From Clostridia bacterium (lineage in GTDB: Bacteria; Bacillota; Clostridia; Christensenellales; CAG-917), in contig JAFZVB010000005.1 in the NCBI GenBank assembly GCA_017618055.1, positions 3,136-67,135 on the forward strand: DNA of 64,000 bases, written 5' to 3'. The position numbers and the translations under genes were made by a program. The notes beneath the pieces were generated by a model. It saw nothing but the letters and a program-made list of their open reading frames with translations, made no database searches and was not told the origin of the DNA. This document shows positions 37,899-54,963 of this stretch, piece after piece (the first letter of the stretch is position 1; each line of letters begins with the position of its first letter).

Positions 37899-37905
37899 AA
37901 CGCTT

Positions 37906-37993
37906 GCCGGCGTGGTGAAATTGGCAGACGCGCTGGACTCAAAATCCTGTGGGCTCAAAACCCGTGTCGGTTCGAGTCCGACCGCCGGCACCA
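37906..37993 (+). tRNA. tRNA-Leu(CAA)
   Basis: GCCGGCG/CGCCGGC acceptor stem, anticodon loop CT-CAA-AA, long variable arm, GGTTCGAGTCC, encoded CCA. Confidence 0.97.
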
Positions 37994-37997
37994 GCAC

Positions 37998-38030
37998 AAA
38001 AAAAATACCCTCATTGCGAGGGTATATTTT
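37998..38030. terminator. Bidirectional terminator between the tRNA and the WYL gene
   Basis: A-tract, ataccctc-attgc-gagggtat stem, T-rich tail; lies between convergent genes. Confidence 0.8.
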
Positions 38031-38044
38031 AATATTTCTGACGT

Positions 38045-39031
38045 TTATTTGTTTTTATACTTTTCATATTGTTGAAAAATTATTTTAGATACTTCATCTT
38101 TTAACCATTCTGGTTCTAAAACTTCGCAATCTGTTCCAAATCCTAAAACAAACTTAATGGTATTATAACGATAATGCATGTCGCATTCTAATATTGTTGT
38201 ATCTTTGTCTATAGGTGTAACAATTTGATTCTGTCCATAAATATATTCCTTAATATACATAGCAGGTCTTCCTGTGAATTTAAGCTTGATATGCACCCAT
38301 TCTCCTGCTATTTTTTCATCATTTGAAGATGTCCAATCTGTGCCACCCTTTAAACCTTCTTCATCAATGTATTCCCTTTCATTATAATAAATTGGTATAC
38401 GAAATTTATCATTCTGTATTTCTAAACTTTCTATTCTATTTAATTTAAAATACAACACCTTTTGCATAGTTTCACAAAATGCCAATACAAACCATGCATT
38501 ATTATAAATAAATAATTTATAAGGACGAATAATCCTTTCACGAACAACGTTGTCATTTGATAAAAAGGCTATCTTCAATTTCGTCCTAGAATTAATACAA
38601 TCCTCTATTATTTGATACCTTTTATTTATCTCATCAACAGGCATAGATAGTGTTACACCTGGTATAATAAAAGTTGGTTGAGGAGGAGGCAATTCTTCAA
38701 TTGAGGAAAGTACTTTTGAAATTGAGGTTTGATAGAGTTTTGTATCTATCAAACTTCCTCTAGCTACTAAATGATCTACACTTATTTGTAGTATTTTCTT
38801 TTCCTCGTCTGTTAATTTCAGACTAGGCATTGTTCCCGAACGATCTAGTTTATACCCACCATATTTGCCAGGAATACTAATTATATAATAGCCTGCTTCT
38901 TCAAGTTCTTTTTTATATTCAATAACATTTCGTGGGTATGTTTCTAAAAGGTCTGCCAATTCTGAAATCTTATACACGCGACCAGATTTTAAAATCTGAA
39001 GCATTAGAATACACATCGCAGCTTTTCCCAT
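38045..39031 (-). CDS. HTH-WYL(-WCX) transcriptional regulator
   Basis: N-term wHTH (ELADLLET..RNV...L...GY.I...G..GGY.L); WYL core R.IRPY.L......WFVLAFC...YFKLNRI; C-term VLGFG..CEVLEP.WL. ATG 39031 preferred over TTG 39037 from the GGAG RBS position. Confidence 0.93.
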   Translation of the reverse strand: MGKAAMCILMLQILKSGRVYKISELADLLETYPRNVIEYKKELEEAGYYIISIPGKYGGYKLDRSGTMPSLKLTDEEKKILQISVDHLVARGSLIDTKLYQTSISKVLSSIEELPPPQPTFIIPGVTLSMPVDEINKRYQIIEDCINSRTKLKIAFLSNDNVVRERIIRPYKLFIYNNAWFVLAFCETMQKVLYFKLNRIESLEIQNDKFRIPIYYNEREYIDEEGLKGGTDWTSSNDEKIAGEWVHIKLKFTGRPAMYIKEYIYGQNQIVTPIDKDTTILECDMHYRYNTIKFVLGFGTDCEVLEPEWLKDEVSKIIFQQYEKYKNK

Positions 39032-39105
39032 AAACAATTCTCCATAATAATCATTTTAAATTATTATAGCAATTAATCATTTATTTTTCTATATATCTAA
39101 AATAA

Positions 39106-39246
39106 CTATTTTCTCTTGATGCCTGTATCGCTTCTCTTAGCGTGCCACTGTCCATTCAAGTTTCTGGAACGATTCATTCCAGCTGTAGGACCAGTCTTCA
39201 CTACAGGACCATGAGTATATCTAGGTGAAATTCCAAATATTCTCAT
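39106..39246 (-). CDS. Small basic protein, 46 aa (below the ORF-track cut-off)
   Basis: AGGAGG RBS, then MRIFGISPRYTHGPVVKTGPTAGMNRSRNLNGQWHAKRSDTGIKRK*; starts 12 bp after the upstream stop. Confidence 0.75.
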   Translation of the reverse strand: MRIFGISPRYTHGPVVKTGPTAGMNRSRNLNGQWHAKRSDTGIKRK

Positions 39247-39258
39247 ACTCTTACCTCC

Positions 39259-39747
39259 TTATTTATTTTTTGGTTTTTTAGATGGGATAGAATACATCTT
39301 TCTCATGTAATCTCCCCAAGGATCGTATACGGGTTTACCAGATGGAGTAGGCATCCCATACTTATAATGCATATAGTCGTTCCAATCAAAATTATTAATT
39401 GATGGTGTGTTATTAGTTATTGGTGTTGGTTTTGCTTGATGTGGGACACGCTGTCTTACTCCCTGTCTCTTCTTTGGTGTAAAATAACTACTTGTTGCCC
39501 TCATTATTTCAAGGTACCTTTGAACTTTTTGTACATCAATTGGAGTAATTTGAATTACACCTGCTAGGCCATGGCAAACATCATCTCTCTTAGTTATCAA
39601 TGCCTTTAGTTCATCCCTTTCATTTATAGTAAGAACACCTCTATTAAAAGCTTGATCTGCCCATTCTTTACCACATCTCCTAATAATACTTTGAGCAAGA
39701 TTATTAATACGATTTACTATATTAACAAAATCATTCTGTTCGTTCAT
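39259..39747 (-). CDS. Putative HEPN-like protein with low-complexity C-terminal tail
   Basis: All-helical N-terminal ~85 aa with KRDDVCHG (Rx4H) after A..RGVL....RDEL..L; AAGGAG RBS. Confidence 0.55.
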   Translation of the reverse strand: MNEQNDFVNIVNRINNLAQSIIRRCGKEWADQAFNRGVLTINERDELKALITKRDDVCHGLAGVIQITPIDVQKVQRYLEIMRATSSYFTPKKRQGVRQRVPHQAKPTPITNNTPSINNFDWNDYMHYKYGMPTPSGKPVYDPWGDYMRKMYSIPSKKPKNK

Positions 39748-39764
39748 AAGCTTCTCCTTTTTTG

Positions 39765-41096
39765 TTATACAAAAACAAATTTATCAATAAAACAATAAAT
39801 TATTAACAATACTATATTTACTATTGTTGCGCCAAATCCAACCGCTGTTGGCATATCCATATCATCTAAGTAGGAAGAACTTATTGCCATTCCTACAATA
39901 GATGCAGGAGCTAACCAGTAGCATATAATTCTATAATCATTCTTAAGTGTAAATGCCAAAATATAGTTTAGTATCATGACTACTATTAAAATAATCGTTG
40001 TAGTTGTAGATGACTCAAGTGTAAACAAGTCATCCATTTGGTAACATATAAATAATGTACATATTGCTATAACTACAATTAAGCAAAAACTGATAACACA
40101 TTGTTCACCAACATAAGATAAGTTAGTTGGTGCGAATATACCATTAACATACAATGCAAAGAATATTAGAAGTATTATATTGCATATAAAAGTTATAATT
40201 GTAACAGCAATATATGTATCAACACACTCATACATTCCATAGAAGAAAAATGCTACTAAAGCAACAAATATATATGAAAACATCCAATAACAAATTGTGC
40301 TATATTTGTCTTTCAATATAAATGCTAGTGTGAAATTGAGCATTGCAATAACTGCAACATCAATAGGATATGATTCTCCTTCATCATCTGCGTTATAGCA
40401 TAATGCAAATATTCCACCAAGTAATATAAGTCCACCAATGCTACCAATAATATGTTGCCATTGATACCATTGTATACGCTTTCCAAATACTGCTAGAAGA
40501 ACAACTGCTACAATTACTACTGCGATTCCAATAATCCATGGCATTATAGTGAACGAATCTACACTACTTGTACTTGGACTACTAGAAGTCTGTGTTGTTT
40601 GAGTTACAGTTGTTGTATTATTTGTAGGTGCACTTGCCTGTGCAGGTGCTTGTTGTGCTACTGGATTTGTAGGCGCACTAGCCTTTTCATGCGTTTGCTG
40701 TACTACCGGCTTTGGTGTTGCTTTCTTATGCTCTGGTGGTTTCTTAACTTGTTGTGGTTTAGCTTTGACTTTATTCCCCGGATAATAACATCTGCCTTCA
40801 CATTGAATTATCTCTAATACAATATTAACTAAGGACATGTACTTCTTATAGTCAACTTTGTCTGATACTTTTTCATATTGGCTTACTATTATGGATGTAT
40901 CGTTATCATTTTCAATAATAGTCTTAAAGAATGAAACTTCCTTATCCATATTAAAGAATAAACTAGCTTTCTTCTTTTCAACAAAACTGTTGCCTATTAA
41001 ATCTGAGACACACCCAAATAGTACCAAAGGATCATATAGTTTGTTCATAGTTCTCTTAGATCTATAAACTTTAGCCAATGCTTCCTTAAATTCCAT
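39765..41096 (-). CDS. Membrane protein: soluble N-domain, P/Q/T-rich linker, ~9 TM helices including a duplicated 4-TM unit
   Basis: Hydrophobicity pattern; LNFTLAFILKDKYSTICYW recurs as LNYILAFTLKNDYRIICYW. Confidence 0.8.
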   Translation of the reverse strand: MEFKEALAKVYRSKRTMNKLYDPLVLFGCVSDLIGNSFVEKKKASLFFNMDKEVSFFKTIIENDNDTSIIVSQYEKVSDKVDYKKYMSLVNIVLEIIQCEGRCYYPGNKVKAKPQQVKKPPEHKKATPKPVVQQTHEKASAPTNPVAQQAPAQASAPTNNTTTVTQTTQTSSSPSTSSVDSFTIMPWIIGIAVVIVAVVLLAVFGKRIQWYQWQHIIGSIGGLILLGGIFALCYNADDEGESYPIDVAVIAMLNFTLAFILKDKYSTICYWMFSYIFVALVAFFFYGMYECVDTYIAVTIITFICNIILLIFFALYVNGIFAPTNLSYVGEQCVISFCLIVVIAICTLFICYQMDDLFTLESSTTTTIILIVVMILNYILAFTLKNDYRIICYWLAPASIVGMAISSSYLDDMDMPTAVGFGATIVNIVLLIIYCFIDKFVFV

Positions 41097-41105
41097 CAGA
41101 CACTC

Positions 41106-41906
41106 CTATTTATCAATAGATAATATCCCCAAAGAAACATCATCACCGATGCCTAATGTTAACCCAAGATCCGTTATAAACTGATCTATCTTCTCTCGGT
41201 TACCTTCCTTGAATAATTTGAGTACAGGGAAAATAAAACTCTTAGAAAAGTTATCTAGGTTCTGATATGGGTTCACAACACCATCTGTGCAAAGGAAGAT
41301 TGTACTAAAGTCACTTAAATCATAGATTTCCGCATTCAAATGTTTAAACGCATCTTCCTGGCACATCGAATAAGTGATATTAGCAACGGTTTCTTCGTCA
41401 TCTTCAAATAAGATTGGTGTTACATTGCCTCTCTTGATGCCGAACAATCCACCATCTCCTAAAGAGACACATAAGATTCTATTCCCTAATACCATTACGG
41501 CATTTAGTGTTGTACCATATGCTATTGTTGGATTAACTTTTAATCTAAATTGCTTGTCTTCATTGAGATGTGCAACTTCCTTAATTGATATAGGATGCTT
41601 GGATAAATCCTGTTCAACGAGCTTATTCCATTCGCACATAATCTCCAGTTTGATTCTATTGATGAAATCAGCCTTTTCCACTCTATACAACAATAGGTGG
41701 TGCTTCTCTTTCAATACATTCATAACTGCATCACAAGCAAACTTGCTTCCTCTGTCGCTTCTAACATAGATCTCCCCACCATGCCCATCGCAAACAGCCA
41801 TTATGGTCCTTTGCTCATCATGGTACACTTCGGAGAAATCTTGGCATACAATATCGTTCTTAACATGAGAGCGTCCTATTGCTGTCTTAACAAAATAATC
41901 AATCAT
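41106..41906 (-). CDS. PP2C-family protein phosphatase (TerY-P type)
   Basis: G.SH......CQD, VCDGHG, GTTL, LGDG, LCTDG, DDVS. Confidence 0.92.
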   Translation of the reverse strand: MIDYFVKTAIGRSHVKNDIVCQDFSEVYHDEQRTIMAVCDGHGGEIYVRSDRGSKFACDAVMNVLKEKHHLLLYRVEKADFINRIKLEIMCEWNKLVEQDLSKHPISIKEVAHLNEDKQFRLKVNPTIAYGTTLNAVMVLGNRILCVSLGDGGLFGIKRGNVTPILFEDDEETVANITYSMCQEDAFKHLNAEIYDLSDFSTIFLCTDGVVNPYQNLDNFSKSFIFPVLKLFKEGNREKIDQFITDLGLTLGIGDDVSLGILSIDK

Positions 41907-41907
41907 A

Positions 41908-42642
41908 TTACCACTCCCAATTATCTACATCATTTAATGATTCTTGTATTTGCATCTTTACATCAGCATGTACAGATTTAACGCTTTCCTTCTTAGCTCT
42001 TATTGCTGTATTTGTAGATTGCACTTTAGAAGTTGTTAAGATTATAATCTTAATGATCTTCTCTAATAGATTAGGATTATAACAAGTGATTACATCACCA
42101 TTAGATCCTACGAAATCTTTTAATACATCAATTGTTCTCTTGTCGTCCAATTCGATAGCTATTCCATATCTAATAGCCACATTGAACCAAGGAAGTTGTC
42201 TAAGAGCATTCATTTCATCCGTCAAAGGCCATCTACCTGGATGCCCATCTGTGAGCAAAAGGATTATTGGTGCGACACCACCGAAGTCTGGCATTATTCC
42301 GCCTTTCTTCTCCTTCTGCAACAAATCCTTAAGCTCAACGTATGCTAGATGTAAATTGGTTTGCCCACCAGCTTTAATTGGCTGGAAATCTAGGTCTTCA
42401 ACGTTCTTCATTCTATCATTGTTGTACAGATGTGCTTCTGTAGAAAATGTGATGATTGTAACATAGAAATCAACATTGGCATTTTCATTTTGCATATCTA
42501 TCAATTTATTCTTGATATCAGAAATAGCGTTGTTGACCTGTTGTATCCTATTGCCACCCATACTTTTGGATGTGTCCACAATTAGGATGACATTAAGACG
42601 TTGTTTGGCAATTCTATCTGTGTTCATTTTATCAGTATTCAT
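41908..42642 (-). CDS. vWA-domain protein, TerY-like (copy 2)
   Basis: MIDAS DTSKS, GGQT, LLTDG. Start reassigned to ATG 42642 (GGAG RBS, 1 bp after the upstream stop). Confidence 0.9.
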   Translation of the reverse strand: MNTDKMNTDRIAKQRLNVILIVDTSKSMGGNRIQQVNNAISDIKNKLIDMQNENANVDFYVTIITFSTEAHLYNNDRMKNVEDLDFQPIKAGGQTNLHLAYVELKDLLQKEKKGGIMPDFGGVAPIILLLTDGHPGRWPLTDEMNALRQLPWFNVAIRYGIAIELDDKRTIDVLKDFVGSNGDVITCYNPNLLEKIIKIIILTTSKVQSTNTAIRAKKESVKSVHADVKMQIQESLNDVDNWEW

Positions 42643-42643
42643 A

Positions 42644-43378
42644 TTACCACTCCACGTCTTCAACTTGTTGTAACTCTTCTGCAATTTGATTTTGAGCAAC
42701 AACATTGTTATCAGCAACTGCAGTTCCACCTTGTCCATTAGACCTTGTGGAATTAGACTTAACTTTTGAAGAAGTTACAGCAATAATCTTAATGACCTTA
42801 CGAAGTGCTTCTGCTGTATAGACCTTCAATACTGTCTCTGGCGTTCCTGTGAACTTGGTCAATACATCCATTGCTTCTGATGTATCAATACCGATTGCTA
42901 ATGCATACTTAAGTGCGCACTTGAACCAACCTTTCTTCTTCAATGACTCAAGACGCAATTCCCAATCTGGGCTTGTTGGCATGCCATCTGTCATAAGGAT
43001 AATGATTGGAGCAATACCACCTAAATCAGGCATCTTGCCACCACTTGATTGCTTGCTGAGGAACTTTGCTAACTTGGAATATGCTTCAGAAAGATTTGTA
43101 CCACCATCAGCATATAAATCTGTCCATTTAAAGTCCTCAACTGTCTTTGGCTCAGAATAAATCCATTCTGCATCATTACTAAACTTAAGTGCAGAAATCT
43201 TAATAAGTGCATCAGATGTATCATCTTGTATATCTGGCATAATGCTCATAACGTCTCTAATTGCATTATTTACAGCACCTAACTTTTCTCCATCCATGGA
43301 ACCTGAGTTATCAATAACGAATAGCAAATTTAATTCTTGGCGAGCTATTCCTTCGCCGATCATTCTATCATTGTTCAT
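42644..43378 (-). CDS. vWA-domain protein, TerY-like (copy 1)
   Basis: MIDAS DNSGS, GGTN, LMTDG.P; clear paralog of the downstream vWA (both end V..xEW). Confidence 0.92.
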   Translation of the reverse strand: MNNDRMIGEGIARQELNLLFVIDNSGSMDGEKLGAVNNAIRDVMSIMPDIQDDTSDALIKISALKFSNDAEWIYSEPKTVEDFKWTDLYADGGTNLSEAYSKLAKFLSKQSSGGKMPDLGGIAPIIILMTDGMPTSPDWELRLESLKKKGWFKCALKYALAIGIDTSEAMDVLTKFTGTPETVLKVYTAEALRKVIKIIAVTSSKVKSNSTRSNGQGGTAVADNNVVAQNQIAEELQQVEDVEW

Positions 43379-44663
43379 AAATTACTCCTATTGTCTCATC
43401 ACTAAATTTAACCTTTAGATCTTTGACTATTGGTATTACACCATTTGCTTGAATTGTTTTTTCTACGCCTTTGGAATCCTTAACTAAAATATCATGATTT
43501 AAGCTAACTTTAATTCCCCAGAGCGAAGGATTGTTCTTGTTTGCTATCACTACACCTACTTCTGTCAAATAATCCGAAGAATATTTGTCGATATGGTGTT
43601 TATATATCTTCTTGCCTAATTCTAGGACGATATATGACTTTCCTATTACTAGAACGGATAATTTCTTTGAATTAGCTCCACAATATGGACAAACTAGATT
43701 TGGCTTGTTCTCTGCTAATCCCTTAATATATTCAACGCCACACTTTGGACAGGATATTAACTCGTCTCTGTATCTGCATAGCTGTTTAATCCATTCTATC
43801 TCTGTTGTTCTTCCATTCTCTCTATCTTGAAGACCATCTACAAATGTACGATGGAATGCTTCCTTGATATAGGTTGGTAATGTTGGCCAGCGTTTCAATA
43901 CACTTGCGTGATATCCTCTAACAGGTCTGTTTGACTTATCTGTTTTGTGGTAAACAAAAAGTGGCTTTGTTCCATATAGTTCGAGCTCAGCCTTTTCATC
44001 TATGATGTTGTAGTTCTTAAGTCTCTCACCTTCAAATGGATTACCTAAACATAAAGTCATAAATAGTATTACTGCTAATGAGAATCTATCTGAATGTGTA
44101 TCTGGTAATGCATCGCCTCTTACAATTTCTGGAGCCATATACTTGATCTTACCAAGTACACCGAGATTCTTCTGATTTGCAGTAACATTATCGTTATCAC
44201 AGATAAGTAACTCCCCGGTATCTCCATCAAAGAAGAAGCTGCCATCATTTAAGTCTTGATATGAATATCCCATTTCATGCAACTTCTTGAATGAAGTACA
44301 AAGTTCTATACACCACTTAATCATAGTTTTTCTATCCTTGAATCCATCCTTTCCATTAAGGTAGGAAACAAATGAACTATAATTGTTTGGACGTAAATCC
44401 ATAAGATATCCAAAATTACCATCTTCTAATTCTACTAACTTCTTAGGCCATAAGAAGTTGTCTGATGGGCTACCCTTTTCAATGTTGCTTCTGAGATTAT
44501 TCTTGAAATCATCATATTGTATGTCCTTATATATCTTAAGAGCATATTTATTATGATCATAATCTACAAGATAAACCTCGCCTTGTCCGCCATCGCCAAG
44601 TAAGTCTAATACTTTCATAGTACTTCCATTGGACTTAATAATTTCATTTTTACTGAATTTCAT
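43368..44663 (-). CDS. Ser/Thr protein kinase with Zn ribbon (TerY-P type)
   Basis: LGDGGQGEVY, ALKIY, YQDLNDGS, CDNDN in place of DFG, YMAPE, DRFSLAV, CPKC..CPYC; start is ATG 44663 or GTG 44669. Confidence 0.92.
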   Translation of the reverse strand: MKFSKNEIIKSNGSTMKVLDLLGDGGQGEVYLVDYDHNKYALKIYKDIQYDDFKNNLRSNIEKGSPSDNFLWPKKLVELEDGNFGYLMDLRPNNYSSFVSYLNGKDGFKDRKTMIKWCIELCTSFKKLHEMGYSYQDLNDGSFFFDGDTGELLICDNDNVTANQKNLGVLGKIKYMAPEIVRGDALPDTHSDRFSLAVILFMTLCLGNPFEGERLKNYNIIDEKAELELYGTKPLFVYHKTDKSNRPVRGYHASVLKRWPTLPTYIKEAFHRTFVDGLQDRENGRTTEIEWIKQLCRYRDELISCPKCGVEYIKGLAENKPNLVCPYCGANSKKLSVLVIGKSYIVLELGKKIYKHHIDKYSSDYLTEVGVVIANKNNPSLWGIKVSLNHDILVKDSKGVEKTIQANGVIPIVKDLKVKFSDETIGVIYEQ

Positions 44664-44777
44664 TTTCACCTCATAAAAGATTTGTTTTGATGTTGCTTGT
44701 TAACCATACTAGATTTGATTAACGTTTGCCTATTTGTTGGTTGGCTACCTCCCTCATCACCTATATCATAAGCCTTA

Positions 44778-44798
44778 TTGTTACATTATTCGTGTATG
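44778..44798 (-). promoter_or_regulatory. Conserved 21-bp motif, copy 1
   Basis: TTGTTACATTATTCGTGTATG (+ strand); on the minus strand followed by 7 nt then TATGAT. Confidence 0.6.
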
Positions 44799-44888
44799 GT
44801 TATTAACTTTTTACAATAATTTTTTTGATTTAATGATATGCCGATTTGCTGGTTGGTTACCCACTCATCACCTATATCATAAACCAAA

Positions 44889-44909
44889 TTGTTACACTAT
44901 TCGTGTATG
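44889..44909 (-). promoter_or_regulatory. Conserved 21-bp motif, copy 2
   Basis: TTGTTACACTATTCGTGTATG, containing the palindrome TACAC-N5-GTGTA; 7 nt then TATGAT on the minus strand. Confidence 0.6.
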
Positions 44910-44913
44910 GTTG

Positions 44914-45468
44914 TTAACTTTTTACAATTTTTCTATTGCCAGTCTTAGCATTATAAATGCTAATAGGGAAAAACTTCCTTCCAGTCTCTCTCTCAAGACC
45001 CCTGAAAATGTTTCTGAATCTAGTAATTGGATCCTCTTGTCCCATAGTTACTTTCTTTAAGGCAAAATATGGTTCCCCATTATGAGACCAAGAACTATCA
45101 ACATGGGTAACTTCTCCATTTGAGCCTATCTCATAGATTTCGTTGTCATAACAAACAACAGCATAGAAATTGGCTTCTTGATTGTTAACCAATTGCCCAT
45201 ATTCAGAAGACTTATCCATAATATATGGAACAAGGAAATTCAATACTGTGTCATAATTCATATGCTTTGAAGTGACTTCTGGATCATACTTCATAAACTG
45301 AGTAATCATCGTTTGACTGCTGAAACAAATCAAAGACTTAGTTCCTTTGTCCCCGATACATATTGGAAGATTCTCCTCCAATAAAGCTTCTCCCTCTGTC
45401 ATAGATAGTTCACTACCAGAAGATATTGCTAAATAAACTGTGTCTTTACCTTTTAATGCTATATACAT
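44914..45468 (-). CDS. Proteasome-beta/HslV-like paralog 4 (degenerate, no Thr1)
   Basis: MYIALKGKDTVYLAIS, ENLP, VVCYDNEIYEI...EV, DP..R, FPISI; aligns by eye with the three upstream paralogs. Confidence 0.6.
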   Translation of the reverse strand: MYIALKGKDTVYLAISSGSELSMTEGEALLEENLPICIGDKGTKSLICFSSQTMITQFMKYDPEVTSKHMNYDTVLNFLVPYIMDKSSEYGQLVNNQEANFYAVVCYDNEIYEIGSNGEVTHVDSSWSHNGEPYFALKKVTMGQEDPITRFRNIFRGLERETGRKFFPISIYNAKTGNRKIVKS

Positions 45469-45471
45469 AGG

Positions 45472-46056
45472 CTAATCCTCCACTATATTGAAATGTAAAT
45501 CCTTTGTGTTCACTGTTATAAATGGCGCTTGAATATCATCAGTATTGCCACATGCATTCCTAAAACAATCTACAAGCTGTTCTTCAATGTCCTTATGTCT
45601 ATCTATCTCATGCAAATAAACCCTACTGAAGACCTTGAACTTGCCCATTGCAAAATACTGAAGTGATAATTCTACTTCATAATCACCATATATCTTAAAC
45701 GCCTTGTCCTTGTATGCTATGATTATGTTGCCAGCAAAACCCATTAGACCATCGTCACTTGAAGTCTCAACATCTGCATCATGGAATAAATCATGAATCT
45801 CTGGAATCAACACGCCAGTAACATAACTCATTGTTAAGTCTTTGTTTCTGTCTAACTTGAAAATACGAGAGTGTGAGAACAAGACTTGTCTTGCTGTACG
45901 ATCACCAATAAATCCGATTACTATACCATTCTTGAGTATCTTGAATGGATAGTTCTCTACTGTACGTTCTACTCTACGTATTCCATTAACATACGATGCA
46001 GTACTTGATGCTAAACTAACCTTGCCATCACTAATATAACCTATTATTGTATTCAT
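45472..46056 (-). CDS. Proteasome-beta/HslV-like paralog 3 (Asn at the Thr1 position)
   Basis: MNTIIGYISDGKVSLASS, ENYP.KILKNGIVIGFIG, IIIAYKDKAFKI, YFAMG, IQAPFITVNT. Confidence 0.68.
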   Translation of the reverse strand: MNTIIGYISDGKVSLASSTASYVNGIRRVERTVENYPFKILKNGIVIGFIGDRTARQVLFSHSRIFKLDRNKDLTMSYVTGVLIPEIHDLFHDADVETSSDDGLMGFAGNIIIAYKDKAFKIYGDYEVELSLQYFAMGKFKVFSRVYLHEIDRHKDIEEQLVDCFRNACGNTDDIQAPFITVNTKDLHFNIVED

Positions 46057-46068
46057 ATAGTTATCTCC

Positions 46069-46632
46069 TTATATAATAAGATCCGGTGCACTTGCTTTGG
46101 TATCTATTGTTGCTACTGGATAAGTCATATCGTTGTAATATGATGCATAACCCTCAAATGTATCAACGATCCTATCCTTTCCAGATAAATGCTTATTCTG
46201 AAGTAAGATTCCTGTGATGAATTCGTCTCTCAAATCTAGAACTGCGAAATTCTCGGCATCCTCAACATAGAAATCCCTATCTATCTTCCATATATTCTTG
46301 TCGTCTGCAATAATGATTCCCTCCATCCATAAATCACGCTCAAGTACACCCTCGTTAGATAGCTTATCCTTAACATAAGGAACAACTGTCTTAACAAGAT
46401 AATTGTGTGTAATCTTATGACCATTCATCATATGGAAGAATGCCTCATCTGTTAATAACACATCCGTAGATCTACAAGTTACTGGTGCTACTACTAATAC
46501 GTGACTATCCTCACACATCATAAGAGGTAGATTCTCTATATTCATTAAATACTCACGTTGATTTGTTGCTTCCAAAACCCAGTCACTCAAACCAATTGTT
46601 ACTCTATCTTTGTCCTTAAACGCTACTACCAT
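46069..46632 (-). CDS. Proteasome-beta/HslV-like paralog 2 (degenerate, no Thr1)
   Basis: MVVAFKDKDRVTIGLSD, ENLP, IIIADDKNIWKI..DFYV, FAV, YPVATIDT. Confidence 0.62.
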   Translation of the reverse strand: MVVAFKDKDRVTIGLSDWVLEATNQREYLMNIENLPLMMCEDSHVLVVAPVTCRSTDVLLTDEAFFHMMNGHKITHNYLVKTVVPYVKDKLSNEGVLERDLWMEGIIIADDKNIWKIDRDFYVEDAENFAVLDLRDEFITGILLQNKHLSGKDRIVDTFEGYASYYNDMTYPVATIDTKASAPDLII

Positions 46633-46634
46633 AC

Positions 46635-47192
46635 TTATCTTACCTCCTTGAAAGCCTTGTCTATGGTGTTAATAACTACATATGGTCCACCAACACCAGA
46701 ACAATTCTTGCTTGCAAACTTGCAAGCATTAATGATCCTATTCTCAGGATCGCCATCTTGCTTAGCCATGCTAGAATAAGCCATATTCTTACCACACCCA
46801 ATTGCGGCATACTCATTAACGCTATATACATTCCAATCTTGTGTCATCATATATAACTTGTCATCCTTAGCTAATAAAACCGAAACTGAAGAATCCCCCT
46901 TATTCAGTAAATCATGACTCTTCTGAAGTTCCTTAAGACGTGGGACAAACTCTCTAGCAATACTTGCTCTTGTAAAGCTTTCCTCTGCAAAACTGAAAAT
47001 ATCTTTGTCAGCCAAAACGAATGATTTAACACTAGCAAGTCCCGACATTGCGAATATCACTCCGTTTGGCATAAGATTAATCTTGCCATACTCATTTGGT
47101 TGATATGAGTCTGTGTATGTTCTTGTAGATACACATGTGTCTGCACATATAGTAACCATTCCATCATGTTTGATTCCTAAAACTACTGTCAT
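46635..47192 (-). CDS. Proteasome-beta/HslV-like Ntn threonine peptidase (apparently catalytic)
   Basis: Start reassigned to ATG 47192 (GGAGGA RBS), giving M-T1VVLGIK..G.VTICAD17T..GKI..GVIFAMSG..YAAIGCG..A..GVGGP. Confidence 0.82.
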   Translation of the reverse strand: MTVVLGIKHDGMVTICADTCVSTRTYTDSYQPNEYGKINLMPNGVIFAMSGLASVKSFVLADKDIFSFAEESFTRASIAREFVPRLKELQKSHDLLNKGDSSVSVLLAKDDKLYMMTQDWNVYSVNEYAAIGCGKNMAYSSMAKQDGDPENRIINACKFASKNCSGVGGPYVVINTIDKAFKEVR

Positions 47193-47211
47193 ATAGTAAT
47201 CCTCCGAAATA

Positions 47212-48354
47212 TTATGCTGCGTTACTCTTAATGCCATTGGCATTAATGTATTGCAACATGTTATCTAAGTCATCCTTCTGAACTGAAGAATGTGTTGCTT
47301 GGGTTGCTAACTCTAGATCTTGGATAGTAAGTTTTGTAGGTTTACCACTTTCAATCTCACGTTCGATTGCATAAACCTTAGCGAGCTCACATAACTCAAA
47401 TACATCCGCGCCATTATATCCTTCTGTTCTCTTGACGATTTCATCAATCATTATGCCAGACTCTTGTGGAACTTCTGCCAATGCTTGTTCAATAATCTGT
47501 CGTCTATCAGACTCATTAGGCAAGTTAACGTAAATCTTGCTTCCAAACCTTCCACTTCTCAAGAAAGCTGAATCAATATCCCATGGTCGGTTGGTTGCTG
47601 CTATAACTACAATATTGCTTTCCTTATGTTCCTCTAATCCCTGCATTTGTTGAAGCAACTCTGGGACAATACGATTCATTGCATTGTCTATAGTTCCGGA
47701 TCTCTTGGCACCTAAAGCCTCAAACTCATCAAAGAAGATGATTGCCCTTTGGTTCCTTCTAGCTTCAGCAAAATACTGCTTAACATTACTCTCGGATTCA
47801 CCCAACCACTTGGATAAAAGAGAGGAACAACTAATTGGTATAAACTTAGCATTGCAATCCCTTGCTATGGCTCTTGCAATCATTGTCTTACCTGTTCCAG
47901 GTAAACCATACAATAATATGCCACCACCAAATGCTTTCTTGAACTTTCTGTACTTACCAGGATATCTGATAGGATAGACAATCTTACGTTTGATTTCTAA
48001 CTTGACATCATCTAATCCTGCTACCTTGTCTATCTCATGTGTTGCCTTTGTTGGTTTGCATGGCTTAATATTGACACTGACACCCATAATGTCATCCTCA
48101 ATATGATTCATGTAGTCGTTATCTAAAACACTGGATACAGAACAACTCTTCTCAAGTAGTTGCTTTGCTTTGTTCACATACACTGCTTCCATCTGACTAT
48201 CTGACTTGGAACCGATACGTATCAACATGTCTGCTGCACATATCATAGATCGTCTTCCTTCATCGATTCTGTCATTGTTAAAGCAATACACTGCATGGCG
48301 GTAGAACTTAAGATAGTTCTCTTGTTGTACACTAATGTTACTTTCTTGTGGCAT
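47212..48354 (-). CDS. AAA+ ATPase, Vps4/CdvC-like, with N-terminal MIT-like helical domain
   Basis: VAGL..VK, Walker A GLPGTGKT, pore loop SKWLGESE, Walker B IFFDEFE, ATNRPWDIDSAFLR.GRF, C-term SSV...L; N-term three-helix pattern. Confidence 0.9.
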   Translation of the reverse strand: MPQESNISVQQENYLKFYRHAVYCFNNDRIDEGRRSMICAADMLIRIGSKSDSQMEAVYVNKAKQLLEKSCSVSSVLDNDYMNHIEDDIMGVSVNIKPCKPTKATHEIDKVAGLDDVKLEIKRKIVYPIRYPGKYRKFKKAFGGGILLYGLPGTGKTMIARAIARDCNAKFIPISCSSLLSKWLGESESNVKQYFAEARRNQRAIIFFDEFEALGAKRSGTIDNAMNRIVPELLQQMQGLEEHKESNIVVIAATNRPWDIDSAFLRSGRFGSKIYVNLPNESDRRQIIEQALAEVPQESGIMIDEIVKRTEGYNGADVFELCELAKVYAIEREIESGKPTKLTIQDLELATQATHSSVQKDDLDNMLQYINANGIKSNAA

Positions 48355-48391
48355 ATAGCCTCCTTCTAAATAAAATATCGTTAATAAGTGA

Positions 48392-48667
48392 TTAGCGTGA
48401 TCTTCTGAATCGCTTGTTCATAAAGATCATATTGTTCTCTCTCTCGCACTTAGGAATAAACACCTTGAGTTTCTCTGCTGTCTTCCTTAGTACTGGATCA
48501 TTCAAACCACGTTCAAGTGCTTCGTCTATAGATAAGCCAAGGCTAAATCTATTCTCCACACACTCTCTGTGGTGTTGTTTAAACAAATAATAATCTTCTC
48601 CGTTTGATCTAATGAAAAATACATCTTGTCCTTTGATGTTAGGTTTACAATACACTTTGTCTCTCAT
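48392..48667 (-). CDS. Hypothetical 91-aa protein, first gene of the AAA/proteasome-like operon
   Basis: GGAGGA RBS; co-oriented, 37 bp before the AAA gene; basic C-terminus. Confidence 0.75.
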   Translation of the reverse strand: MRDKVYCKPNIKGQDVFFIRSNGEDYYLFKQHHRECVENRFSLGLSIDEALERGLNDPVLRKTAEKLKVFIPKCERENNMIFMNKRFRRSR

Positions 48668-48753
48668 ACGCGTTATCCTCCGTTATTCCTAAAGTCTTGA
48701 ATGATTGAAATACTGCTAGTTGGGCAATACTCCCCACAAATATTTACGTGGAT

Positions 48754-48774
48754 TTGTTACACCATTTATGTATG
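48754..48774 (-). promoter_or_regulatory. Conserved 21-bp motif, copy 3
   Basis: TTGTTACACCATTTATGTATG, 18/21 identical to copy 2; ~87 bp upstream of the 91-aa gene. Confidence 0.6.
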
Positions 48775-48875
48775 AATATAAAAATCCCAAGCATTATTAA
48801 ATTTGTGTGCGACAAAAAATGCACAAATAATGTTTGTTTCATACATACGATTAATAATTACGATTGTTTGTTGAA

Positions 48876-48904
48876 AAATTGTTTTAAATTGTTTTAAATT
48901 GTTT
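48876..48904. repeat. 10-bp tandem repeat, ~3 copies
   Basis: AAATTGTTTT-AAATTGTTTT-AAATTGTTT. Confidence 0.8.
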
Positions 48905-48910
48905 CTAAGT

Positions 48911-48959
48911 ATCCTTGCAGTAACGACTCCCTTTACCTGCATTACTGTTCCTCAAGGAC
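48911..48959 (-). other. Candidate structured RNA element (bulged hairpin)
   Basis: Minus strand GTCCTTG-AGGAA-CAGTAAT-(16 nt)-GTTACTG-CAAGGAT; two positions pair as G-U only on the minus strand. Confidence 0.4.
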
Positions 48960-49135
48960 GGGCTAAATTGGTTGCTAAAATTAAAATAAAAATTTATGTT
49001 GTTTTGTTAAATATCATATTAAAAAAGGTACCCCCATTAATACGTTCAATTATGCTACTATTGTTTACTATATATTTATAATTTTTATAATTGGATTTAG
49101 TCGCAATCCAATACAAGAAACTTAAAAATAATAAA

Positions 49136-49156
49136 CCCTTATACAAAGTATAAGGG
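49136..49156 (-). terminator. Terminator after the RNA polymerase-like gene
   Basis: cccttatac-aaa-gtataaggg perfect 9-bp stem with U-rich tail on the minus strand. Confidence 0.75.
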
Positions 49157-49212
49157 AATTATGTAGTTTATTATTTTTTTGAATAATTTATTGAATATTT
49201 CTTAAAAATTCT

Positions 49213-51903
49213 TTATGATCTCAAATCAAAGAAATAATCGAATATTTGGATTTGTCCGTCCAGTTCTTCTGTAAATGTTGGTAGCTTTTTATTCTTATCC
49301 TTTGAGCGTTTTAATAAGGCAGCAAAGACTGCATTATTTGGTTGGAATAAGATTGATACAACTAGCCATATTCCATTATCCTTATTTCCTTTTTTATCTG
49401 TTATTTTGCCTTGACTTACCTTTTCTAATACCTTCTTTAAAACTGATTCTCTTTTCAATATTTTATTAATTTGCTCACTATAATCATTTCGGATTGATAC
49501 TATATCTTTTTGTATAACTTCCTTACTATATTCATCCTTTGAATTGCTAAGTTCATGTTGCAAAGAAGAATTTGTTGCCTTAAATGTATTACAAATTTCA
49601 ACGATATCATTTATTTTATTATAATCATTTCTTGTTAATACTTCGTCTGTCCATACAAACAAATCTTCTAATTGTATTTTTGTGGTCATTATTCTTTCGC
49701 TATTATAATTAACAAATTCATGAATAGCCTTATTGATATAATCCATTGTTGTCTTATGCTCAACATATGGCTTTTTACTATCACCTTTGCCCTTTATATC
49801 TTTAAAGAATTGAGGTTCAGTTTGAAGAATTTCCTCATGATCAATTAGTAATTTTGTAATAATTGATGATGAGTCTATTCCATAGCTTCGCTTTGCCTTA
49901 TCTATTTCCATACCAGATAAAACTGCAAGAATACATATATCGTTATACAATTTTTTTACATCATCGCTATCAAGTGCTTGCCCCGAGTTAACCATATCCC
50001 ATAATTTACTATTTAATCTTTGAGACAAATTAACAATTATTCCAGTATTATCATTTGATAATTTGGTATCAATTACATCTAAAGACTCACCTTTTACTGA
50101 TACTGGTTTTATATGACAATATGGAACTTTAAAGAATTTATATTGCTCTTTTGTTGTTTTTACAATCACAGGATCATTTGTAATCAACATCGCATCGGAA
50201 TCATAATCGCATCCATTCAATCTTTGTTGAATGTTATCTCCTATTGCATTTACACAAACAACATTATCACCCAAAGTAAAGTATTCCCAAATCCCATCTG
50301 TTTTGTAATTATTTGTAACAGAATACAAGTTGCCCATTGTAATGTGTGGAGATCTTGCGCAAACCAATTCCTCTCCATCTTTAAATTTTTCAATTCTAAC
50401 CTCTCCAGGCTTTAATTCACTTTTGCCATCAAATTTGCCAACAGTTTGACGAAGCATTTCTGGACCATTCCCAAATAAAGTTGCATTAGTTCCATTAATC
50501 AAGAAGTGCCCTTCATATAATCTATCTTTCATTGCATCAACCAAATCATACATTAAATCACTAAATAATTGTGTATTGGCAAAATCACTATTAACTTTTA
50601 ATAGACTAAGAATCGAACCGGCACGGAAAGCAAGACTTTCTTCTTTTGAATCATCCTCGTCAAAAGAAAAATTATCTTTTTCACGATTTGTAAGGTGCTC
50701 AAAATAATAATTCATTATAGCTGGTTCACTTCTTATCCAACTGATAAATGCTGCGTGTTTCTTTACTAATGTTTCTGCTTCTTCTTTTGTAAAATGCAAA
50801 GTATTCAGGAATTGATAACTTGTTTGAACCATTCTTCCATCAAAGAACCTTGTTCTCTTATCACATTTAACAATACCAAATGTATTATCAACATATTTAG
50901 CCCACTTTCTAATATTATCTTCTGTTAATCCACCTTTTAAAAATTTAAGGTATTTCAAACTGTTTGGAGTGGTAACCATAACAATATCTTCTACTTTTGA
51001 AGCTAAAGTCACTCCTCCGAATTCCTTTAGTTGCTCTACTTTAGTAATATTGTTGTCTTTAAACCATTTTTGCAATTTTGTTCTAAATCCACAAGACTTA
51101 AAGAACTTGTTACGCAATAATAACATATGTTTATTGACTAGGTTCTTAGTAAACAAACTCTCGTCCAAAAGAGCTTCACCATCCCATATATCATTTCTAA
51201 TTTCTTCCTGTTTTTCAGTAGCGACCAAAGTATTATCTTTTTTTTCTATAGATACTACATTATCTGTAAATTCTATTACTTGATCATTTATAAATAATAT
51301 GCTACTAATTGGTATTTTTATTAATCCATTTATAGAACTAAGTGACAATGATTGATATGCTTCAAATGAAACTATATCTAATTTCTTTGGAGATAATCCA
51401 CATCTGCTCCATTTGTTCATCTTCGCATATAATTTTTTCAATATAAACAAGCACCTACCATCTCTACTATTGCTAGCACTTCTTTTATATCTAACATATT
51501 CTTTACCATTTATTTTAAAACCATCTTCATATAATCTTGTTCTAAGTTTTGCTGTATCTAATATCACATCACCATAAGTAATATTTGTTTTACCATCATC
51601 AGTTTTTTCTTTTGATAAAATTTCTTTATATGTGTACTTAAAAGAAACACTGACTACGGCCAATGTATATTTAAAACCATACTTATCTACTTGATAGAAG
51701 TTGTCCTTTTTTGCATTTTCTGGATTATATATTTTGTGAAGTTGTATCGTATCTAAAGACCAATCCAAAGTATTTCTAAATTTTTTGTAATAGGCTCTTG
51801 AACCTTTTTTAGGTAGTTTGTATCCTTTTTTAGAATCACTATCCATACCACGACAAATGTCACAAGCTTCTAATGAGAGAATTCTATATTGTTCTAATTC
51901 CAT
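49213..51903 (-). CDS. YonO-like / eukaryotic-RdRP-like two-barrel single-subunit RNA polymerase
   Basis: Ordered motifs WDGEAL, LLRNKFFKS, TPNSLKY, SYQFLNTL, ARSPH, QRLNGCDYDSD (DxDxD), TGIIVN, EIDKAK match the RdRP/YonO motif series. Confidence 0.85.
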   Translation of the reverse strand: MELEQYRILSLEACDICRGMDSDSKKGYKLPKKGSRAYYKKFRNTLDWSLDTIQLHKIYNPENAKKDNFYQVDKYGFKYTLAVVSVSFKYTYKEILSKEKTDDGKTNITYGDVILDTAKLRTRLYEDGFKINGKEYVRYKRSASNSRDGRCLFILKKLYAKMNKWSRCGLSPKKLDIVSFEAYQSLSLSSINGLIKIPISSILFINDQVIEFTDNVVSIEKKDNTLVATEKQEEIRNDIWDGEALLDESLFTKNLVNKHMLLLRNKFFKSCGFRTKLQKWFKDNNITKVEQLKEFGGVTLASKVEDIVMVTTPNSLKYLKFLKGGLTEDNIRKWAKYVDNTFGIVKCDKRTRFFDGRMVQTSYQFLNTLHFTKEEAETLVKKHAAFISWIRSEPAIMNYYFEHLTNREKDNFSFDEDDSKEESLAFRAGSILSLLKVNSDFANTQLFSDLMYDLVDAMKDRLYEGHFLINGTNATLFGNGPEMLRQTVGKFDGKSELKPGEVRIEKFKDGEELVCARSPHITMGNLYSVTNNYKTDGIWEYFTLGDNVVCVNAIGDNIQQRLNGCDYDSDAMLITNDPVIVKTTKEQYKFFKVPYCHIKPVSVKGESLDVIDTKLSNDNTGIIVNLSQRLNSKLWDMVNSGQALDSDDVKKLYNDICILAVLSGMEIDKAKRSYGIDSSSIITKLLIDHEEILQTEPQFFKDIKGKGDSKKPYVEHKTTMDYINKAIHEFVNYNSERIMTTKIQLEDLFVWTDEVLTRNDYNKINDIVEICNTFKATNSSLQHELSNSKDEYSKEVIQKDIVSIRNDYSEQINKILKRESVLKKVLEKVSQGKITDKKGNKDNGIWLVVSILFQPNNAVFAALLKRSKDKNKKLPTFTEELDGQIQIFDYFFDLRS

Positions 51904-51912
51904 ATACCACCC

Positions 51913-53526
51913 CTATATCTTATGATATTCTTTTATTTCTCCGAGACTATTTGTAAACATAATCTCTATATCGCCATCTTTAATCTCTATTGCTGTTCCA
52001 GTAAATTGGTATCCAAATAGAGTTTCAAATCTCATATTTTCGTCATTACGTAATGAACCAAGTACAAGTGGGAAACTAGCAATATTTTTACCTTTAACCT
52101 TACTATCTTGAGCAGTTGCAACTTCACCAGGAGCAAAATACTTGGTTGTATGAGAATGACCACACATCATAAAATCAATATTCATATCTTCTAGATATGT
52201 TAAAATCTCTCTCATTGGCTCCCCACCAAATTTTTCTATAGATATTGGGAATGCCTCATGACATACTGCGATTCTATATTTAATAGAAGGGTCATCAAAT
52301 AAACCACTATCTTTAATAGATTTCACCCACTTTGCCTCGTCCTTTCTATATTGCTCATAGTCTCCAACATCTTTTGCAACTGTTCTTGCATCTTTGTCCA
52401 AATTTCCTATATCTAACACTATGAATGCTATATCCCCAACCTTAACTGTGTAATAGAATGTATTGTCTCTAGATGCATACCAAATTGGTAAATTAACTAG
52501 TTGAGATCCAACTGCTTCATGGTTTCCTCTGCTAAGTATAACAGGCACAGAGCCATTTGTAATATTTCCAACTAATCTGTACATATTCTTAATCTGCCAA
52601 TCTTCAGAAACATCATTGAGATGATCTCCATTTGCAATTAATATATCTAATTTGTCTCCATAATAAGATGCTGCTCTTTGTGGTCCGGTTCTATATAGAT
52701 GGTTGTCACTAATATTGTATATTTGTATTCCATCATCAAAGTTTATTGGTCTAAATGTATAGTCTTTAGAAACTGTGGAAGTTCTAATTGGATAATATGC
52801 TCTATTATGAGAAACACCATAGGAAACAACTTTATAGTTGTTATTGTTATCTAAAATCTCTCTTGGAATAGTTACTTTATGTAATGTAGAACAGTTTAAT
52901 GCTCCCGCATATGAATCATAATATTTTTCATCCCCTATCTCAATATATCCTGCTGTTGTTGTAGATGTGCTCCAGCAAATCTGATACTCATCCTCTACCA
53001 TATACACCGCTGCTTTGGTATCAAAGAAAACAGGTTGCAAGTTGAATACACCAAATACAAATGCACATGCAATAACAAATCCTATAACACTAGCTAGAAT
53101 CAGCTTGGTTCTCTTGTCAAAACTCTCCCTTTTAACAAATACAATTAGAGCAATAATTATTAGTATAACCAATAAATATGGGAACATCTCAATTGTAAAA
53201 TAAACCAATTTAGAAAGATATGCCGCTAACATTACAAAAATAAGAATACACCAAATTATTCCTAATGCTGCACTACAAATCTCAACAACAGAATTCTTAA
53301 AGAATATTCTATTTATTGTAAACAATAAAAATGGAATAAAAACAACTGTTCCAAATAATGCTGGAATGAAATATGCAGTATAGTACATTGGATTGTACAA
53401 AGTATTCCATAAACTATAAAAGAAAATGATAGGTGCTAATGTTAAAAATAGACATAAAATCCATAACTTATGCCTATTAATAAATACATAGATGTCTCTA
53501 ATCTTTTGCTTTACCAATTCTTTCAT
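51913..53526 (-). CDS. Membrane-anchored metallophosphoesterase (purple acid phosphatase-like)
   Basis: About 5 N-terminal TMs, FN3-like region, SDNH, NGD, RGNHE, CH, GHSH. Confidence 0.88.
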   Translation of the reverse strand: MKELVKQKIRDIYVFINRHKLWILCLFLTLAPIIFFYSLWNTLYNPMYYTAYFIPALFGTVVFIPFLLFTINRIFFKNSVVEICSAALGIIWCILIFVMLAAYLSKLVYFTIEMFPYLLVILIIIALIVFVKRESFDKRTKLILASVIGFVIACAFVFGVFNLQPVFFDTKAAVYMVEDEYQICWSTSTTTAGYIEIGDEKYYDSYAGALNCSTLHKVTIPREILDNNNNYKVVSYGVSHNRAYYPIRTSTVSKDYTFRPINFDDGIQIYNISDNHLYRTGPQRAASYYGDKLDILIANGDHLNDVSEDWQIKNMYRLVGNITNGSVPVILSRGNHEAVGSQLVNLPIWYASRDNTFYYTVKVGDIAFIVLDIGNLDKDARTVAKDVGDYEQYRKDEAKWVKSIKDSGLFDDPSIKYRIAVCHEAFPISIEKFGGEPMREILTYLEDMNIDFMMCGHSHTTKYFAPGEVATAQDSKVKGKNIASFPLVLGSLRNDENMRFETLFGYQFTGTAIEIKDGDIEIMFTNSLGEIKEYHKI

Positions 53527-53634
53527 TACTAAAAATATATATTTTTAATGCGTAGAATGTCAATACCTAAATTAACTATTCATTTAATTTAACTTGAAAA
53601 TAATATTGCTATACATTATAATTTTAGAAGTTAA

Positions 53635-54963
<1,329 letters not shown>

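Follow-up and report, generated by a model that had tools for sequence, protein, structure and literature searches.

We examine a promoter-like element that is repeated in a stretch of DNA from a Clostridia bacterium (CAG-917; GenBank assembly GCA_017618055.1, contig JAFZVB010000005.1, positions 3,136-67,135); this whole stretch, 64,000 nt long, is called the window. Three copies of the element, named A, B and C, stand ahead of two operons of a gene island that is coded entirely on the minus strand: copies B and A precede a kinase/vWA/PP2C operon, and copy C precedes an operon for a 91-amino-acid (aa) protein (p91), an AAA ATPase and an HslV-like peptidase. Leaving aside the direction of control, we consider it probable that the element is the operator of a local regulon, recognized by the island's own regulator with winged helix-turn-helix (wHTH), WYL and WCX domains. 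The case is a comparative one: the site is palindromic, sites are found in nine of ten related loci with the WYL gene and are nearly absent where that gene is missing, and the genome contains a single WYL gene and three sites, all of them inside the island. An earlier note, made from the letters of the window, had offered this protein as a possible binder, and the comparison supports its suggestion.

A palindrome, a spacer and a -10 box

The 21-nt core of the element, TTGTTACAYYATTYRTGTATG, lies at 44778, 44889 and 48754 (plus-strand coordinates) without a mismatch, just where the earlier note had placed it. A pattern search with this core across the window gives no fourth copy at up to two mismatches; the shuffle control for the core is circular, the pattern having been taken from those same copies. 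On the minus strand each core is followed by exactly 7 nt and then by TATGAT, TATGAT or TAAATA, and the word tg.t.gttgg is present at 44735, 44847 and 48714, again as the note described. The shared element of ~60 bp that it proposed is real as a repeated unit, but the conserved span is only ~45 nt. This unit opens with a 9-N5-9 palindrome (ttGTTACAy-N5-rTGTAACAA). A spacer of 7 nt leads to a -10 box of the sigma-A type, TAnnAT, and close to the predicted start there is a GT(A/G) word. The window copies are imperfect palindromes, with TACAC or TACAT retained in the left arm; a related locus, L048, has a perfect one (TTGTTACAC-TCATT-GTGTAACAA). As an inverted repeat with a short central spacer, the site falls within the ~19-27 bp form suited to a dimer. 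Assuming a start ~7 nt after the -10 box, the palindrome would span about -42 to -20, with its better-conserved proximal arm at -28 to -20. A further candidate copy at 46589-46607 is rejected; it lies inside the coding frame of the 187-aa protein and has one half-site only.

The promoters that contain these sites have no recognizable -35 box. For copies A and C the best match to TTGACA is 2/6 at spacers of 16-18 nt, in agreement with the note's remark that this hexamer is missing, and over 18 non-redundant sites (22 aligned sites minus four near-duplicates) the best match at the same spacers is 2-4/6. None of the 18 sites has a TGn extended -10 box, and the upstream flanks of the sites are AT-rich. 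A generic sigma-70 scanner, which requires a -35 box, makes no call at A or C; the pair that it proposes for copy B (TTAACA-18-AACAAT) is set aside, being unconserved across the 22 aligned sites. Downstream, a (T/G/A)GT(A/G) word follows the -10 box by 2-6 nt in 14 of the 18 sites, compared with 17% of random 12-mers, for a pattern that was picked after inspection and in sites that are kin. Because the word recurs in so many sites, the GTG that the earlier note pointed out is a real conserved feature, as part of GT(A/G), but the CCAAC.AGCA next to it is not seen in related loci. The word may mark the nucleotides at which transcription initiates, or else be an additional half-site. As for the "leader" in the note's description, it does not hold up: none of the three predicted 5' leaders folds better than its shuffles (z -0.48, +0.31 and -0.33); an Rfam scan of 37800-53700 (E<=1) matches a tRNA alone.

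Is the element confined to the island? The genome assembly comprises 1,576,270 bp in 28 contigs, and a scan of the whole of it, a check that the note had called for, finds three copies only, all in the island. The degenerate core occurs at three sites with up to two mismatches, at six with up to three and at 25 with up to four. With a 37-column matrix the island copies reach 31.9-36.5 bits, the runner-up in the genome has 18.0, and nothing in the genome outside the island attains 20 bits; a palindrome-only matrix, in which the -10 box is kept out of the selection, scores them at 25.7-27.2 bits and the next genome site at 17.7. A scan of viral contigs with the strict palindrome returns eight stretches, all of them longer hairpin-type palindromes; these are judged unrelated, since they lack a -10 box at 7 nt and have none of the island proteins in their vicinity.

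While three copies are present, as the earlier note stated, A and B are not independent, being tandem duplicates. A repeat search aligns 75 nt of the two without gaps at 88% identity and a spacing of 111 nt, and blastn aligns 106 nt at 86.8% identity (E 9e-28); Tandem Repeats Finder does not list this 111-bp duplication. A metagenomic relative with a 94%-identical kinase (L042) has a single promoter unit, and the duplication is recent. Copy B and the stop codon (44914-44916) of the 184-aa gene overlap. Copy C has the core in common with A and B over 29 nt at 76% identity, where the local alignment ends, but the likeness beyond is marginal: 3' of the -10 box the best 10-nt window between C and A has 8/10 matches, a value reached by 344/5000 shuffles. 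Tandem motif promoters on the same strand are also present in L048 (242 and 371, 129 bp apart), and tandem motif promoters ~730-740 bp apart in L043 (8040 and 8781) and L044 (3500 and 4233). Since the members of these pairs differ in sequence, paired promoters recur apart from the recent A/B duplication of the window. Just upstream of copy C, AAATTGTTTT is repeated in tandem 2.9 times (48876-48904), and a small hairpin lies at 48806-48825.

RNA data bear on the operons at their genes. In two bovine-gut metatranscriptome runs from one study, where 14% and 10% of the sampled words are found, 11 contigs (153-286 nt) map within genes of both operons and leave the promoter regions uncovered. Because none of them reaches the promoters, these contigs give no start site or proof of transcription.

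Distribution of the sites and of the WYL regulator

A search of metagenome contigs with the island kinase gives 43 loci, and the fetched loci (designated L with a number) are 63, totalling 725 kb. Ten loci with kinases at least 59% identical have a WYL orthologue after the kinase-vWA-vWA-PP2C genes (L043, L044, L047, L048, L051, L052, L053, L054, L056 and L063). The orthologues are 38-59% identical, and sites are carried by all of the ten loci except one. The earlier note had raised the possibility that the motif would be absent upstream of orthologous operons; it is present in the related islands. The element was recognized in these loci first by inspection and afterwards with a pattern; eight aligned sites from six independent loci agree in the palindrome, the spacer of 7 nt and TAnnAT. 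With the full matrix, the 63 loci contain 23 matches of at least 14 bits, and the 15 that reach 20 bits or more all belong to loci with the kinase and lie on the operon strand. These loci are kin, so that counts of co-occurrence overstate their independence.

The palindrome-only matrix allows the -10 box to be judged separately. The 22 loci with kinases at least 59% identical (240 kb) contain 27 matches, of which 19 are on the operon strand. A TAnnnT box follows at 7-8 nt in 18 of these 19, and CATAAT in the other one. The remaining eight matches are the same palindromes read in reverse, and none of the eight has a -10 box. By comparison, 17 kinase loci without a WYL gene (184 kb) have one weak match, and 16 loci with homologues of the island's polymerase (described below) and without the kinase (280 kb) have five matches, which score 16.6 bits or less and lack a -10 box. 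Between the palindrome and the -10 box the spacer sequences are unrelated among loci, while the spacing is fixed. The sites lie just upstream of the ribosome-binding sites of varied genes, namely those for HslV-like proteins, the kinase, a 165-aa membrane protein, small open reading frames (ORFs) and, in L051, the WYL protein; L052 also has a site upstream of its WYL gene.

WYL orthologues (E<=1e-20) are found in two of 401 genomes sampled from the order. Genome G054 (L090, 13614-17686) has a 37%-identical WYL gene followed by RtcB and a DUF2828/DUF7788 protein, with transposase fragments on the flanks. The 75-nt gap between the WYL and RtcB genes contains ATGTAACAA-N7-TATCAT, a half-site plus -10 box of 15.7 bits, which hints weakly that the motif accompanies the regulator when the cargo changes. 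Genome G042 is uninformative on co-occurrence, because the best WYL match on the contigs searched is only 25% identical. The window's own genome has a second kinase/vWA/PP2C module on another contig (C19:85540-86814; L041 7529-10387), with a 44%-identical kinase and a longer operon; it has no WYL gene nearby and no motif.

We turn to the regulator. Pfam matches it with WYL (E 1.3e-11), WCX (4.8e-10) and HTH_11 (5.8e-4, below the cut-off of that family), and PADLOC with WYL (9.7e-30); among 20 island ORFs scanned with Pfam, it is the sole protein with a helix-turn-helix match. A structure model of it (predicted local distance difference test score, pLDDT, 75.5) was compared with known folds using Foldseek. 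PafBC and DriD come first (E 2e-13 to 1e-11), followed by BrxR (6e-9) and CapW (2e-8), and the matches to the four span E 2e-13 to 3e-7. A sequence search gives the order PafBC (3.4e-4), PafC (6e-3) and BrxR (0.025). In an alignment of nine orthologues the wHTH is the best-conserved region, with R34, N35, Y39, E42 and L43 invariant, which fits with the conserved operator core; the recognition helix reads ETxPRNxIEYKKEL. The WYL gene has a promoter of its own, TGcTATAAT (39091-39063).

Activation, repression and other readings

How might the element work? In the mechanism that we propose, each copy would be a composite promoter, with the palindrome at about -42 to -20, 7 nt, a -10 box for the housekeeping sigma factor and no -35 box. 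The regulator would bind the palindrome as a homodimer, the proximal half-site would take the position of the "-26 element" of PafBC and SiwR promoters, and the bound regulator would give the host RNA polymerase the contact that a -35 box normally provides. Both operons may in this way be placed under one signal-responsive switch, the AAA/HslV-like operon via C and the kinase/vWA/PP2C operon via B and A, and the trigger may be a ligand such as single-stranded DNA (ssDNA) that the WYL domain senses. Activation is proposed because the proximal half-site sits at the "-26 element" position and the promoters lack a -35 box, and it is favoured over repression because of that missing box, the fixed spacing and a regulator that is nearer to the activator clade. 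The note's comparison with PafBC, which acts through a motif between -35 and -10, suits the geometry of the element well. The motif with its fixed geometry, its restriction to the island, its occurrence together with WYL orthologues and its independence of the polymerase gene are observed; we infer the binding, the dimerization, the start site, the direction and the ligand, and activation by the WYL regulator at -35-less composite promoters has in our estimate slightly less than an even chance. Bolder, and somewhat less probable, is the claim that a homodimeric WYL protein in a low-GC gut Clostridia-type host uses a PafBC/SiwR-like adaptation of sigma to switch on a whole defence-type island; on that claim the conserved TGTA-like word at the start would provide one more contact.

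A number of observations weigh against the operator and its activating role. L054 has the WYL gene and no site of at least 14 bits, in an upstream region that ends at the contig edge; L045, L046 and L049 have the kinase module and an 18.9-bit site with only an 84-residue WYL-like N-terminal fragment. In the window, no site of at least 12 bits lies ahead of the WYL gene, hence there is no autoregulation there. Both matrices were built from six of the sites that they later scored, and the 37-column one includes A and C. The fixed spacing may be inherited rather than selected, the sites being kin, and the -10 box of copy C is poor (3/6). With its AT-rich flanks the promoter could have basal activity even though a -35 box is missing. 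A dimer bound from -42 to -20 would also block the -35 region, and the GT(A/G) word at the predicted start, which looks like a half-site, may act as an auxiliary operator of a kind that would suit repression. The WYL regulators known from defence islands are repressors: BrxR is described as one (PMC9122601), and CapW and the subject of a 2026 preprint on Vibrio reportedly are repressors too.

The strongest rival keeps the same site and the same binder and reverses the sign. A WYL repressor of the BrxR/CapW type would lie over the -35 region, perhaps over a start-site half-site too, and phage infection or DNA damage would release it. We regard this as somewhat less probable than activation. The BrxR site that represses a defence island is an inverted repeat with a 5-bp spacer (PMC9122601), the palindrome at -42 to -20 would cover the position of sigma region 4, the word at the predicted start recurs in most sites, the AT-rich flanks may serve as an UP element, and the site ahead of the WYL gene in L051 fits autoregulation. 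However, with no -35 box and no TGn in 18/18 sites, the unbound promoter looks weak, and a dimer over the -35 position would have no -35 box to obstruct; the distance from operator to -10 box stays at 7-8 nt in 18/19 sites despite unrelated spacers; the regulator is nearer to PafBC/DriD than to BrxR/CapW in both fold and sequence; the BrxR operator, as that source describes it, is downstream of the -10 box and not upstream; and the missing autoregulation in the window tells against a repressor too.

It is quite unlikely that another DNA-binding protein, such as an NrtR-like regulator, a host global factor or a small island protein, recognizes the palindrome. Several island proteins have no family assignment, and a conserved basic ORF of 46 aa accompanies some loci. 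This ORF, however, is found in only four motif-bearing loci (the window, L029, L043 and L044), the 91-aa protein accompanies polymerase loci that are motif-free, and the WYL protein alone has the helix-turn-helix match; a global regulon is unlikely because all three genome sites lie inside the island. Against an NrtR-like protein, no Nudix domain is present in the island ORFs scanned with Pfam, and the single Nudix frame of the genome (190 aa) is on a different contig, far from the island.

The note's other suggestion, that the element is the promoter of the adjacent YonO-family RNA polymerase, has very little to recommend it after the comparison. The polymerase directly upstream of copy C is a genuine member of that family. 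It matches phrog_8308 at E 1.4e-85 (E = 0 for SPbeta YonO), and a 12-sequence profile aligns with YonO over 507 columns in hhalign (probability 96.6%, E 5e-10), pairing NGCDYDSD with the metal-binding motif of YonO, with DxDxD invariant. The closest folds to its mediocre structure model (pLDDT 64.9) are RDR2 and QDE-1 (E 3e-7 to 1e-4), and searches of PDB sequences with the single sequence and with the profile give no match. A 2017 paper (PMC5467207) left the promoter sequence of YonO undetermined, and no later definition is among the matches listed for papers mentioning YonO and RNA polymerase. In favour of the suggestion, too, the conservation reaches the start-site region, as it does in phage polymerase promoters. 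The distribution speaks otherwise. Polymerase homologues occur in 14 of the 401 genomes (own included) and in four genome-contig loci in the genome-contig scan. Of 17 polymerase loci fetched, L029 is the sole one with the kinase too (70% identity), none contains the strict core at up to three mismatches, and in the 16 that lack the kinase no motif is accompanied by a -10 box. Conversely, at least ten loci have the motif and are free of polymerase homologues over as much as 10 kb to either side, and the only motif-bearing loci with a polymerase are the window and L029. A tblastn search with the polymerase (E<=1e-5) against the 43 metagenome loci, five of which reach 10 kb upstream of the kinase, has L054 as its single match, a weak one on the opposite strand. 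The p91/AAA cargo of L021 and L029 begins ~80 nt past the polymerase stop codon with no motif between. Moreover, the element is a palindrome with a canonical sigma-A -10 box, and the polymerase operon has a canonical promoter of its own (TTGACA-18-TATATT, 53563-53534) and a terminator-like hairpin before copy C.

That the repeats are mere relics of local duplication is hardly credible: A and B are a recent tandem duplicate and the C-A similarity past the core is marginal, but the architecture is kept in many diverged loci with unrelated spacers and flanks, always in the orientation of the operon and a short way ahead of the ribosome-binding site and start codon.

Island genes and known WYL systems

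The features of the island are collected in Table 1.

Table 1. Features of the island and of the repeated element, in window coordinates (bits: 37-column matrix, then palindrome-only matrix).
Feature	Position	Strand	Remarks
tRNA-Leu gene	37906-37993	+	follows the WYL gene
wHTH-WYL-WCX regulator gene	38045..39031	-	proposed binder; 328 aa from ATG; only WYL gene in genome
Operon 2, downstream of B and A	39259..44663	-	Ser/Thr kinase (weak zinc-ribbon match), two vWA, PP2C, 443-aa membrane protein, 162-aa protein
Tandem duplication giving A and B	44714..44938	.	~111-bp promoter unit; repeat search and blastn
Copy A, -10 hexamer TATGAT	44765..44770	-	7 nt 3' of palindrome; inferred start ~44758
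Copy A, palindrome	44778..44800	-	23 nt, imperfect, ACCATACAC GAATA ATGTAACAA; promoter-proximal to kinase operon; 36.5, 25.7 bits
Copy B, -10 hexamer TATGAT	44876..44881	-	7 nt 3' of palindrome; inferred start ~44869
Copy B, palindrome	44889..44911	-	23 nt; upstream twin of A; 33.9, 26.1 bits
Operon 1, downstream of C	44914..48667	-	91-aa protein, Cdc48/PAN-like AAA ATPase, HslV/proteasome-like peptidase, 187-, 194- and 184-aa proteins
Copy C, weak -10-like TAAATA	48741..48746	-	7 nt 3' of palindrome (or AAATAT at 8 nt); inferred start ~48734
Copy C, palindrome	48754..48776	-	23 nt, TTCATACAT AAATG GTGTAACAA; ahead of p91/AAA/HslV-like operon; 31.9, 27.2 bits
Terminator-like hairpin	49136..49156	-	CCCTTATAC-TTT-GTATAAGGG and T-run; directly 3' of polymerase gene; lies between polymerase operon and copy C
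YonO-family single-chain RNA polymerase gene	49213..51903	-	896 aa; in operon with metallophosphoesterase
Metallophosphoesterase gene	51913-53526	-	same operon as polymerase

The kinase/vWA/PP2C make-up of operon 2 is that of the TerY-P triad as defined in the relevant passage of PMC11090510; the PADLOC models give no TerY-P match. At least the 194-aa protein of operon 1 aligns weakly (17-20% identity, tblastn) with the HslV-like protein, and operon 1 looks like a proteasome-type module tied to the TerY-P-like triad. In relatives, a single HslV-like gene stands immediately 5' of the kinase, and the two genes are under one motif promoter. The basic 46-aa ORF (39106-39246, minus strand) lies between operon 2 and the WYL gene and has no family match. 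Its relatives in L029 (832-951), L043 (8370-8489) and L044 (3821-3940) are 57-70% identical over 40 residues, and in L043 and L029 the ORF is just 3' of a motif promoter.

The surroundings of the polymerase vary among loci. After its stop codon, an identical 9-bp stem (CCCTTATAC / GTATAAGGG) with a variable 3-nt loop is present in four loci, the window, L021 (6456-6476), L026 (6925-6945) and L029 (4564-4584), whose polymerases are 42-46% identical; the hairpin occurs once per locus and once in the window's own genome. Such conservation seems unusually high for a plain terminator. In L023 (7338-8486, 9276-10898) the polymerase is followed by a MobA/VirD2-type relaxase, with a serine recombinase as well, and in L025 (7511-8716) by a MobA/VirD2-type relaxase; these neighbours suggest a mobilizable element. 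In L021 (6498-9112) the genes after the polymerase encode an FtsH-like AAA+M41 protease, a p91-like protein and an ADP-ribosylglycohydrolase. Because the p91/AAA genes of L021 and L029 follow the polymerase hairpin motif-free and those of the window have copy C, it appears that this lineage brought a polymerase-linked AAA module under the WYL switch.

The motif ttGTTACAy-N5-rTGTAACAA-N7-TAnnAT is a candidate operator for an uncharacterized WYL clade of gut and rumen Clostridia, and two unlike modules, one proteasome-like (AAA/HslV) and one TerY-P-like, would be wired to one switch. We drop the motif as a candidate for the still-unknown YonO-type promoter. The island bears on the question whether WYL factors of defence islands always repress or can activate via -35-less hybrid promoters. 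If activation is true, sigma adaptation, so far described only in Actinobacteria, would extend to Firmicutes and to immune-type cargo.

How does the element compare with known systems, as the cited papers describe them in the passages concerned? The SiwR homodimer of Mycobacterium smegmatis, bound to a 19-bp palindrome that is situated between -35 and -10, activates via the -26 region (PMC10693628). Its promoter, that of msmeg_1357-56, resembles the element in having an imperfect palindrome in this place, a canonical -10 box and adjacent genes; SiwR is a homodimeric wHTH-WYL-WCX protein that needs the -26 region, and the island regulator has the same domains and is proposed to be a homodimer. 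SiwR is actinobacterial with a GC-rich site, while here the host is of the low-GC Clostridia type and the site AT-rich; the palindrome here is 23 bp (9-N5-9) instead of 19; two to five promoters per island take the place of the one that SiwR controls; the cargo is defence-like rather than DinB-like; and activation, established for SiwR, is a proposal here.

PafBC is the closest solved relative of the regulator by sequence and fold. Its promoters are described as having no -35 box and an element at -23 to -28 (PMC8635444), and these "-26 element" hybrid promoters have a canonical -10 box as well, like the promoters of the island, whose proximal half-site would be at -28 to -20 from the predicted start. 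PafBC, however, binds DNA only with RNA polymerase present (PMC10853764). It is a heterodimer with a non-palindromic site and a regulon of ~150 genes, whereas here there are one WYL gene, a palindrome and three genome sites.

BrxR binds 11-bp inverted repeats with a 5-bp spacer in a box downstream of -10 (PMC9122601). The R-BOX of BrxR and the operators of CapW resemble the element in that the WYL regulator is encoded in a defence-type island, the two arms of the inverted repeat are 5 bp apart and each island has two or more boxes. The BrxR arms are 11 bp in a box after the -10 box and the protein is an autoregulated repressor, whereas the arms here are 9 bp and come before it; BrxR and CapW have ~270-290 aa, compared with 328 here, and rank below PafBC and DriD in the fold search.

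DriD activates from ATACGAC-N7-GTCGTAT upstream of the -35 box (PMC10853764, PMC9186387), and DdaA activates from CGWCA-N5-TGWCG ~50 bp upstream of the start (PMC12392091). Both are homodimeric WYL proteins on a palindromic box, and DdaA has the N5 spacer in common with the element and controls some defence genes. Unlike the island sites, their boxes lie at -36 or further, are GC-rich and serve genome-wide DNA-damage regulons. YonO of the Bacillus prophage SPbeta belongs to the same family as the neighbouring 896-aa protein, but the motif here does not travel with the polymerase. Judged by its sequence, the element is a combination of the palindrome and N5 spacer of the homodimeric family with the promoter geometry of PafBC and SiwR.

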